Positions 35,901 through 38,900 of a stretch of DNA of 64,000 nucleotides are shown here, piece after piece. The position numbers and the translations under genes are program-made. The notes under the pieces are model-generated. The model did no database searches. It had not been told where the DNA came from and saw nothing but the letters and a program-made list of their open reading frames with translations. Every line of letters starts with the position of its first letter. Positions within the stretch are counted from its first letter, which is position 1. This DNA is from Tubiluchus corallicola (lineage: Eukaryota; Animalia; Priapulida), in the NCBI GenBank assembly GCA_030141605.1, contig JAQGDQ010000065.1:496001-560000 (forward strand). The letters are read 5' to 3'.

Positions 35901-38900
35901 GGCAATCAGCAATTCACGATTTCTATGCCTGACATCAAACAGGTCACAAGAATTAATATATCTCGAACTGGCAAAATCATAATCACCGGAGGAGGCTTCA
36001 AAAAATGGGCTGTAACGAAATTGGCGAATCTGCTGCAATTAATGCGAGAGGAGATTTCTGAGAAACCTACAACAGGTGACTATGACCTAAATCGTAGTAA
36101 AGATCCTTCGGATTTAGACTTATCCCAAAACACAACATCAGATACAAGTTATGTATCTCTCTTTAGCCAAGAATCTGAGCTTGAAACTATGAGTAGTACG
36201 ACACCAACAAATACTACTAGTACTATGCCTATATGCAGCGGGATTAATGCAAATAATTGGCAAATAGACTTAACAAACCTTAACAACACCACATCAGATT
36301 CCGGAACACAAACAGAGCAAAACGATACAAATTTGACAACTGCAACCAATGAAGTTAAGTCCATCGGAATTCAATACGAAAACACACAAGTTTCGTCTGG
36401 GAGAAGTGAATTTAATGAAAATTCAATGAAATCAACTGAAACTCAATGTACCCTAAACAACTCGTGTACCAGAGAAGCTGCAACACAATGCGAGCACGAT
36501 AAAGCTCGATTCACATCAGTGGAAACGCAGTATGAACGCAACGAACAATCACTAGACCTTCTTGAAGTTCAACGTGAACATACATCTCTAAATGAAATCA
36601 TTCTAACAGATTTTGATTCATTTCCAAGAGAAGTGAACCTAGAAATAAGTACCATAGACGCTTTTAAACAAGAAGTATTGCTACTACGTCTATCTCTAGA
36701 GGAAAACAACGCGAAAATGAACCACTTGTTAAACGAAATCACTAGCTTGTTTGTCAAAGTGCAAAAAGAAAATAAAATGATGCAGCCTGCTGTGATTACT
36801 ACTACGAACACTGGAAATCACGACAACGTAAACATTTCCTACGGCAACGCACAGGCAAGCTAACGCAGTAATGCAGATGCTTCCCAAGTCAACGGACAGG
36901 CAGGTCAACGCAGTTTGTTAAATGCTTACCACGGCAACCTACAGACAGGACCACGCAATACACGAATGACGAAGAATCTATGGGATACAACTAACACACT
37001 CATCTTAGGAGATTCTAGGACATCATACGTAAAACCCCGACAGATTGGCAAAAACATTCAGGTACATTCTTATAGGGGTTTAACAATTCATGAGTTAGAT
37101 GAAAAAGTGATAGATAGCTATGCACATACTAAATTGCATAATGTTGTTCTATGTTGTGGCATAAATGACGTGATGAATTTTCACAAAACTAATAGGCAAC
37201 TAAATGTTAATGATTTCTTGGCTGTAACGATGGAAAGGGTTAGATCTTGCGTAAGTAAAATTAGGAAAGTCTTTTCGCCAGCTAACATTTTCATATGTGA
37301 CATTCCTGTGATATTTAACAACAAATATGTTTTTGGAAAAATTCAAATTACGGATACCATTAATAAGACCGTATATCAATTGAACAGCGAATTGTATAAA
37401 TTAACCAGTAATGAGGACTTGATATTGAGCGAAGTGGCAAAATTTTTCGTTAATAATGAATTGATAGCAATGGATGGATTACACCTAAGTAGAACAGGTG
37501 TTGATAAATTAACCCAGGTAATTTCTCACTGCTTGACCAGTGACAATAAAAGGTGGATTGCGCCTAAACGGTATAATAGTAGGCCAGTAAAGCCCATTAT
37601 AGGACAAACAGCGTCAATCACACAAAGCAAGGAAATGAATGATCATTTTATACTACAGCAAACATTGAGAAGACCGGCTTTGCTGCCAACGCCGGTACCT
37701 GATCAGGATTGTTACACTACAACAAACAACAAAACCACTGATCAAGACCTACTCGTGAATAATAAACAACACATTAGCACATACGCACAGGTAGCACATA
37801 CGCACAGGTACTACACAAACAACCAAAACAGATTAGCACCCCAACCACTGGCTCGCCTGCATCAAATTGTGACGCTGAAAAGAAAGAACAATTGAATGAG
37901 CTCATTAGCAACGCTGTGAAAAAGTTCTTAAACAGTTTCCTGTAATTAAAATTGTATCTAAGAAGCTCCCGTTGTAGCAAACAAATTTATTTCGAGTTTC
38001 CCGATTGAATTTCATTGGTATTGACGTTTTATGTTCAGTTTAAAAATAACGTTTTTGCTATTTATGCTACTATTTAGTGCCGCCTGTACTTCATATAATG
38101 TACCCACTAATGATGAAATGTGTGCATGTTATAGGCCTATCGTTAACATTAGCCTATTGGCAATCAGTCTAACTCTCATAATTTACGTTACTCTTTCTAA
38201 GTCACACAATAGTAAATTAATTATGGTGCTGATAAATTTAAGCGTAATACCTTCATATATTTTACTAGTGGACCCATGTTGTCTTAATCCTGATTTTGTG
38301 CTTTATACTCTTGACTTAATAAGTACTGTAATACAGATCTTAATTTATATTTCAAAAATTTTCATATGTGTAAAAGCTAAATGTAATTCCCATAAAATTT
38401 TATTTATTGCTTCGATATGCATCTTACAGCTGTACAATGGCAATACCAACTTACCTGTAATAATTAAGAATTATCATATTTTTAAACTTAAAAATTGGCC
38501 TGATTTTAATCATTTGAACTTTAATTATGACGTTCAACCACTTGTAAAAAATATTTTTAACTCTGTGTACTTCCTAAAAAGGCAAATGCGTCATGTCAAT
38601 CTAAAATACGTAGCTCTAAAAAAATTGGGAAAATTACAGATTTCATCTAAATTTGAAAGCACTATATACTCATGTTCTGAACTGGCTTACATTTTAACCA
38701 TAATTCGTTTACTACTTATACTTGGTGGTATCGAAACTAACCCTGGACCCATTTTGCCAAATAATAATAATAATAATAATAACAATAACAATAACACCAA
38801 CAATAATAATACCAGTGATGAGCTAAAAAAATTCATGATTACTTGTAAAGAGAACATCAAATTTCTAAATAAAAATATTCAAAGTCTCGTCAAAAAACAC

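Follow-up and report, generated by a model that had tools for sequence, protein, structure and literature searches.

The window analysed here is a stretch of 64,000 nt from the priapulid Tubiluchus corallicola (GenBank assembly GCA_030141605.1, contig JAQGDQ010000065.1, positions 496,001 to 560,000 of the forward strand), and near its middle lies a long interspersed element (LINE) with two open reading frames (ORFs), the second of which encodes an APE endonuclease and a reverse transcriptase (RT) (Table 1). The order of APE and then RT within ORF2, the 5'-truncated copies and the simple-repeat 3' tail identify it as an APE-type LINE. ORF2 opens with a leader that is coding, open in frame and family-wide, and that an initial annotation, made from the sequence alone, had described as a membrane protein joined to the endonuclease by a 2A-like ribosome-skipping motif. 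What that annotation missed is a box of 31 letters within the leader that is complementary to the 3' untranslated region (UTR) of the same element. Whereas a 2A motif at the start of a LINE ORF2 has been published before, the complementarity between leader box and 3' UTR is new.

Table 1. Features of the LINE and of its ORF2 leader, in window positions (KD, Kyte-Doolittle hydropathy)
Feature	Position	Strand	Basis or remark
LINE, ~6.6 kb	roughly 35400-42022	+	ORF1, 85-nt spacer, ORF2 with APE and RT
ORF1, first part, 386 aa, ending at in-frame TAA	35703..36863	+	
ORF1, second part, with putative SGNH-like esterase	36864..37945	+	
Spacer, 85 nt, without AUG; one-letter insertions at 38026 tolerated	37946..38030	+	ATG list, contig indels
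ORF2 leader, 240 codons, up to first residue past predicted skip	38031..38750	+	
Signal-peptide-like start, aa 1-19	38031..38087	+	KD 2.02 over 19 aa; layout common to relatives
Predicted membrane span 1, aa 37-55	38139..38195	+	KD 2.31
Predicted membrane span 2, aa 63-81	38217..38273	+	KD 2.11; weakest by Hessa sum
Predicted membrane span 3, aa 96-114	38316..38372	+	KD 2.20
Short hydrophobic segment, aa 123-135, probably not long enough for a span	38397..38435	+	KD 1.22 over 19 aa
Leader box, 31 nt, in basic tract, codons 183-193, complementary to 3' UTR; includes in-frame M186 AUG (38586)	38579..38609	+	
Leu-rich helix and 2A-like core GGIETNPG, then P; predicted skip between G239 and P240	38682..38750	+	core definition of PMC12846837
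Poly-Asn linker, AAT/AAC repeat	38760..38813	+	sequence and ORF list
APE endonuclease domain	38859..39479	+	PF03372 and PF14529 above cut-off
Reverse transcriptase domain	40358..41119	+	PF00078 E 2.6e-36, above cut-off
ORF2 stop codon	41786-41788	+	
3' UTR partner of leader box, 82 nt past ORF2 stop	41870..41900	+	inside core 41858-41907
AATAAA and simple-repeat (AT) tail, end of element	41985..42022	+	

The frame that begins at ATG 38031 stays open to 39620 and is the frame of the APE domain, so that the uninterrupted run from this ATG through the poly-Asn linker into APE is as the initial annotation had it, and all the peptides it quoted are present. There is no stop in the 240 codons to P240, against 11-29 in each of the other five frames, and none of 20,000 base shuffles of the leader remained open, which bears out the earlier claim that such a run is unlikely by chance. 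Codons 1-185 taken alone would be open with a probability of 9e-7, and none of 10,000 dinucleotide shuffles of them was open. Other copies of the LINE were viewed through contigs of four public runs from two samples (96, 78, 109 and 7 contigs aligned over the leader region, by run). A contig from the second sample spans 38094-38575 with nine changes and no gap. Among the 12 indels listed of 31 in all, two are one-letter insertions 5 nt upstream of ATG 38031, one of them seen in each of the three first-sample runs, two are 6-nt deletions that keep the frame and eight shift it; each of the eight comes from a single X2 contig with a depth of 127-244, like other lone contigs, and we read them as decay of dead copies. 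These contigs, from two samples, show that the leader is open in other copies and not confined to the copy in the window.

The leader box is the reverse complement of its 3' UTR partner at 27 of 31 positions without a gap (E 2e-6), and the two folded as RNA form a duplex of 29 Watson-Crick pairs with an energy of -37.1 kcal/mol. Corrected for local structure, the net gain is -21.2, versus -8.2 +/- 3.1 (best -16.6) for 56 other windows. Among 88 LINE loci fetched, both ends are present in 22, and the best match scores in these (19-29) stay below the 42 reached by the box and its partner, a score attained by 0 of 100 shuffles. The 50-nt core of the 3' UTR that contains the partner (41858-41907) recurs in diverged 3' ends with different flanks to either side, leaving loose ends at 41858 and 41907; this core may be an RT recognition site, perhaps one common to short interspersed elements as well. 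Moreover, contigs of a sister family start to match exactly at 38579 in all four runs. One sister contig has no change over 38579-38612 and another has 14 changes over 38579-38710, and in the ~200 letters upstream of the box the sister family does not align at 80%. Immediately upstream of the box about 16 of 26 letters are alike with one three-letter gap (hand count), and the 30 sister letters visible there are open and encode a related peptide (ILKVVYLSAI against IFNSVYF-LK, aligned by hand). These suggest that the sister leader is coding too and that the box is held at the level of letters.

LINE insertion is known to leave inverted fragments as by-products, and the box could be such an accident, that is, a short inverted copy of the 3' end caught in an old insertion and without function. 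With one family pair examined this has some appeal, yet the box lies in frame within coding sequence, 29 of its 31 positions still pair, and the sister box is unchanged whereas up to 14 differences fall in the 98 nt that follow, a pattern with a chance of 0.005-0.02 if both sister contigs belong to one lineage. An accidental origin is thus unlikely in our judgement, which is separate from those on the other alternatives below. A depth peak over the box, considered as a sign of many families, was mostly gone once the reference included the 3' UTR, and is likely due to 3' UTR contigs aligned antisense. Stable local hairpins were rejected for the 3' UTR and the spacer (z-scores -0.07 to -0.66), Rfam returned nothing, and the box pattern had no match in metagenome contigs.

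The box covers the AUG of M186 exactly, and this codon is the main rival for the start of ORF2. Were the pairing to deliver ribosomes to this AUG, ORF2 would begin with a 55-aa 2A leader, inside the range of 40-80 aa reported for LINE 2A leaders (PMC3708506; here and below we refer to the available portions of the papers cited), and the first 185 codons would be a relic or a rare extension; the likeness of the sister family, high from the box on (14 changes in 132 nt) and low upstream, would fit as well. We nevertheless regard a start at M186 as rather unlikely, given that the upstream frame is open against the odds stated above, that the 30 visible sister letters upstream are open too and differ by a three-letter gap (by hand), that P0022, the closest relative, has a comparable NLKY tract in which no Met occupies this place (a likeness by eye only), and that the AUG of M186 has a weak context and would be concealed by a duplex of 29 pairs. 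The likely start of ORF2 translation is ATG 38031, which no other AUG separates from the ORF1 stop of the family; this start is favoured because the relatives too begin with a signal-like stretch.

To describe the membrane character of the leader we used Kyte-Doolittle hydropathy with a 19-residue window and a threshold of 1.6, which also picks up the 2A helix. Of the signal and about four further hydrophobic segments claimed initially, the signal and three spans stand, and the fourth (aa 123-135) is short and falls below the threshold. The loops after the signal alternate acidic, basic, acidic and basic (one-sided p 0.002, with loop borders chosen by the analyst), which is the charge pattern that the positive-inside rule predicts for a signal followed by three spans. 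The proposed multi-pass membrane protein therefore agrees with the loop charges, which are better membrane evidence than hydrophobicity, and the leader is likely membrane-inserted, as predicted from its sequence. With this alternation the enzyme would face the cytosol, as would the tail and the 2A. As a separate observation, the LINE ORF2 protein P0052, of another clade, has four hydrophobic segments in residues 1-160 and no NPGP; this start could represent an independent membrane leader or an error of gene calling.

The general layout is not peculiar to this element. In an RT search for proteins longer than 1,092 aa, NPGP occurs near the protein start in seven of the best 120 of 1,464 matches. 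An RT tree of 137 sequences places the element in a group with P0022, P0141, P0024 and P0100, all of them 2A-bearing (support 0.96); the tree held no Repbase or named references and shows only that the nearest proteins carry 2A leaders too. We compared the layout in the window and six relatives with leaders of 92-118 aa, leaving out P0103 (18-aa leader). An 11-mer with a KD of at least 2.5 in the first 30 aa is found in the window and five of the six relatives, versus 2 of 113 long ORF2 proteins without 2A, and a basic tract (+4 to +7) precedes the 2A helix in all seven. The layout of signal, basic tract and 2A is thus common to the 2A-bearing relatives, and the window leader is an enlarged form of it. 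An APE match was present in 42 of the 88 fetched loci, none with a 2A motif upstream, and these 42 therefore serve as base-rate controls and not as clade members. A search of viral contigs gave no relative. In P0022 a PHD finger sits between 2A and APE, at the place that the poly-Asn linker occupies in the window.

At the end of the leader, the core GIETNPGP fits the published definition (D/G/C/N)(V/I)ExNPGP, in keeping with the 2A-like motif first annotated there; it departs from the strict canonical core D(V/I)ExNPGP by G in place of D. The suggestion that this change may weaken skipping is not supported by the viral StopGo cores: G at core position 12 is found in 1,207 viral cases, compared with 908 in which D matches exactly, and it is described as a functional variant that has been confirmed (PMC12846837). 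G at this position does not imply weak skipping. Like the viral StopGo cores with G12, the window motif has a hydrophobic upstream hexapeptide ending in G (PMC12846837); those cases are viral, and the window peptide was not encountered among tested peptides. A G-core class with a Trp has also been described, and the window peptide differs from it in lacking the Trp (PMC12338488). 2A peptides are not known to need RNA signals (PMC12846837). A peptide ending in VIGGVEMNPGP gave the upstream product alone, and 59% of the ORF2p peptides tested lowered the protein level (bioRxiv 10.64898/2026.06.17.732966). From the motif, skipping and ribosome drop-off are both plausible at the predicted 2A. P0020 (133 aa) has two tandem GGVEMNPGP 2A-like peptides, which are nearly the one reported as of the drop-off type.

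If the 2A is inactive or weak in its context, the main product would be a fusion of the endonuclease and RT (EN-RT) anchored in the membrane and facing the cytosol. L-rich upstream motifs are indeed mostly paired with D at position 12 (PMC12846837), most non-canonical peptides were inactive in one screen (bioRxiv 10.64898/2026.09.24.754024), and many 2A-like peptides of CR1 and Crack elements are inactive (PMC3708506). The E, N, P, G and P of the window motif are nonetheless all intact, NPGP is retained across relatives at ~35% RT identity, and an anchored enzyme would presumably need another route to the nucleus. We consider the anchored fusion quite improbable.

Our preferred reading, which we hold at about even probability, is that the leader is a membrane-docking and enzyme-throttling module with a long-range RNA switch. 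Ribosomes would begin at AUG 38031, past ORF1; the signal, together with the three predicted spans as they insert, would bring ribosome and LINE RNA to dock at the endoplasmic reticulum (ER). The predicted 2A would then free EN-RT into the cytosol, or the ribosome would drop off there, so that the enzyme is limited. The leader box would stay paired with the 3' UTR as long as no ribosome opens the duplex. In untranslated RNA the duplex would conceal the conserved 3' core, which is likely the loading site of the RT, or would slow ORF2 translation, and ribosomes that pass through it, or that form a queue behind the 2A site lying 138 nt further downstream, would melt it. The job of the leader would be mostly done during translation, which fits a fast-changing sequence of variable length.

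Several observations weigh against this reading. The context of AUG 38031 is poor. Four such hydrophobic segments arise by chance in 3.8% of simulations of T-rich stop-free DNA and in 8% of residue shuffles, and hydrophobicity alone is weak evidence because T-rich stop-free DNA itself yields hydrophobic peptides. In P2A and F2A no substitution of D12 reached the activity threshold, and highly active variants with one change number 139 of 1,969 (bioRxiv 10.64898/2026.09.24.754024); the activity of a 2A is decided by its exact upstream context. Pairing of this kind was found in none of the 22 more distant LINE loci. The residues of the leader, moreover, show little constraint. For the leader region 40 of 117 substitutions were listed, and the 35 leader substitutions among them comprise 12 silent changes, 22 residue-changing ones and one stop, where ~26% silent changes are expected under neutrality (p 0.25). 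Similarly, 7 of the 23 changes carried by at least a quarter of X2 depth are silent. Five of the nine changes in the second-sample contig are silent (p 0.06). The listed substitutions are indistinguishable from neutral, and the purifying selection by which the initial annotation would have recognised a functional leader is not seen among them; the frame is kept and the residues are weakly held.

This bears on the strongest form of the initial claim, namely that the 239-aa product, once released, is a dedicated third protein of the element with a later job, for example the transport of the LINE particle on membranes in concert with the esterase of ORF1. The length of the leader, its topology signal and the 82-aa soluble tail between the spans and the 2A helix would suit such a protein, as would the finding that the ORF1 esterase of ZfL2-1 binds phospholipids and liposomes (PMC3905857); codons 49, 161 and 162, which are in three states across the samples, could reflect diversification. 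Against such a protein stand the listed substitutions, which do not differ from neutral, and the lack of kin in the searches made. In a HMMER search of 1.84 billion representatives only the last 30 aa of the leader were matched, in one protein, leaving aa 1-210 without a homologue, and none of ten other 2A leaders aligned with it better than shuffles. The leaders of the closest relatives are 30-118 aa long with fewer hydrophobic segments, and those of 92-118 aa that we compared keep only the layout. We thus find the third protein doubtful, and retain the module acting during translation as the preferred reading. Pfam holds no family for the leader and an Atlas search gave no usable match; a single-sequence structure model was poor (pLDDT 48) and its fold search empty at E 0.001, which carries no weight either way. 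Two origins of the leader were also rejected: it is not the antisense of another LINE's coding region, since the reverse frames all hold stops and only 31 nt match, and it did not arise by internal duplication of a span-loop unit, for which 980 of 3,000 shuffles score equally well.

For the esterase of ORF1, the initial assignment to the SGNH type rests on a Lipase_GDSL_2 match that is present but weak (E 0.001, 20.1 bits, versus a Pfam cut-off of 32.9). The motifs GDS, GIN and DGLH are visible in ORF1 and may be those of an esterase; comparison with solved structures gave no esterase among the matches for ORF1. The first part of ORF1 has no Pfam match under E 0.04. Its first 130 aa (35703-36092) resemble unnamed cnidarian-rich clusters and the bacterial RnlA/LsoA N-terminal domain (Atlas 0.80-0.88), which is a lead only, and 36236-36560 encodes several short (K/A)(S/A)xETQ(C/Y)E repeats, noted by eye in the translation. 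The in-frame TAA at 36861-36863 divides ORF1 ahead of the esterase part, and a further stop occurs at 36768 in contigs of three runs; the esterase part could have a frame of its own beginning at ATG 36966, or could be reached by readthrough. In the window copy a 17-nt duplication near 37775 moves the end of ORF1 to 37895, whereas without it the frame ends at 37945, and the 17 duplicated letters are missing from contigs in three of the four runs.

The ORF2 of the window copy is decayed, with three frameshifts near 39609, 39842 and 39911 that are absent from many contigs of other copies; its RT motif is CADD. In runs X1-X3 the summed contig depth at the 3' end is about a thousand times that at ORF1, a gradient such as 5'-truncated LINE copies would produce, although depth does not count copies. 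The LINE family is young. The 3' part of another LINE-like element (34472-35368) appears to abut the 5' end of the studied LINE, with loose ends at 35368, and more retroelement fragments were seen by eye at 42041-43721, 45496-45975 and 47472-48134 (a minus-strand RT with a C-terminal piece, an APE piece and an ORF1-like frame).

Like the LINE 2A elements described before, the window LINE has a 2A-like motif at the ORF2 start ahead of APE and RT (PMC3708506, PMC3894237). In those elements the motif lies ~40-80 aa from the ORF2 start with an activity from high to none, and most lack ORF1, with exceptions listed (Odon et al. 2013, PMC3708506). The window element differs in that its 2A is at aa 240 behind predicted spans, a distance of 40-80 aa resulting only from a start at M186, in that it has ORF1, and in the G for D of the core. 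A 2A at this place has been proposed to lower ORF2p output (PMC3708506; Luke et al. 2013, PMC3894237), and the available portions of these two papers describe no 3' UTR pairing. A survey of titles and abstract starts (without Repbase, supplements and most subscription papers) found no description of a multi-span or transmembrane ORF2 leader, nor, in the same scope, of long-range pairing between leader and 3' UTR in LINEs. In sea-urchin NLR proteins, 2A-like signal sequences provide dual targeting, with skipping deciding between the cytosolic and the secretory route (Roulston et al. 2016, PMC4981915), and they share with the window LINE a hydrophobic start joined to a 2A motif; there, however, a single 26-aa peptide in host genes is both signal and 2A, whereas in the window LINE the two are ~200 aa apart with spans between them.

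Among working systems, barley yellow dwarf virus offers the nearest parallel to the duplex, although the geometry differs. Pairing over 4 kb in that virus has been proposed to control traffic between translation and copying, and in barley yellow dwarf virus, dianthovirus, umbravirus and tombusvirus, as in the window LINE, pairing over 3-4 kb would connect a region of polymerase expression with the 3' end (PMC5009743). The viruses use a 6-nt loop just 3' of a frameshift or readthrough site (PMC5009743), whereas the window LINE has 29 pairs 138 nt upstream of the 2A, so that the box does not have the position of a luteovirus-type switch. In ZfL2-1, the esterase ORF1p has led to the suggestion of a membrane step in retrotransposition (Schneider et al. 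2013, PMC3905857); the window ORF1 has a putative SGNH-like domain, with the esterase match below the Pfam cut-off. A possible but still speculative extension is a particle built at the ER, in which the leader would dock the RNA by the ORF1 esterase, the 2A would free the enzyme, and opening of the duplex would expose the RT site solely on RNA with ORF2 under translation. If true, cis-preference and the control of traffic from translation to copying would have an RNA-level mechanism in a LINE.

Two questions about LINEs are open: how ORF2 is translated, its initiation having been called unresolved (PMC3894237), and by what means ORF2p selects its own RNA. The element gives two separable handles on them: a leader open to swapping or tagging, with which membrane docking can be followed, and a 31-nt box that silent changes and changes in the 3' UTR could unpair and pair again. 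If the leader is inserted at the ER, the putative lipid-binding esterase of ORF1 would gain a partner step, and if the duplex works, a form of control known from plant RNA viruses would act in LINEs too.

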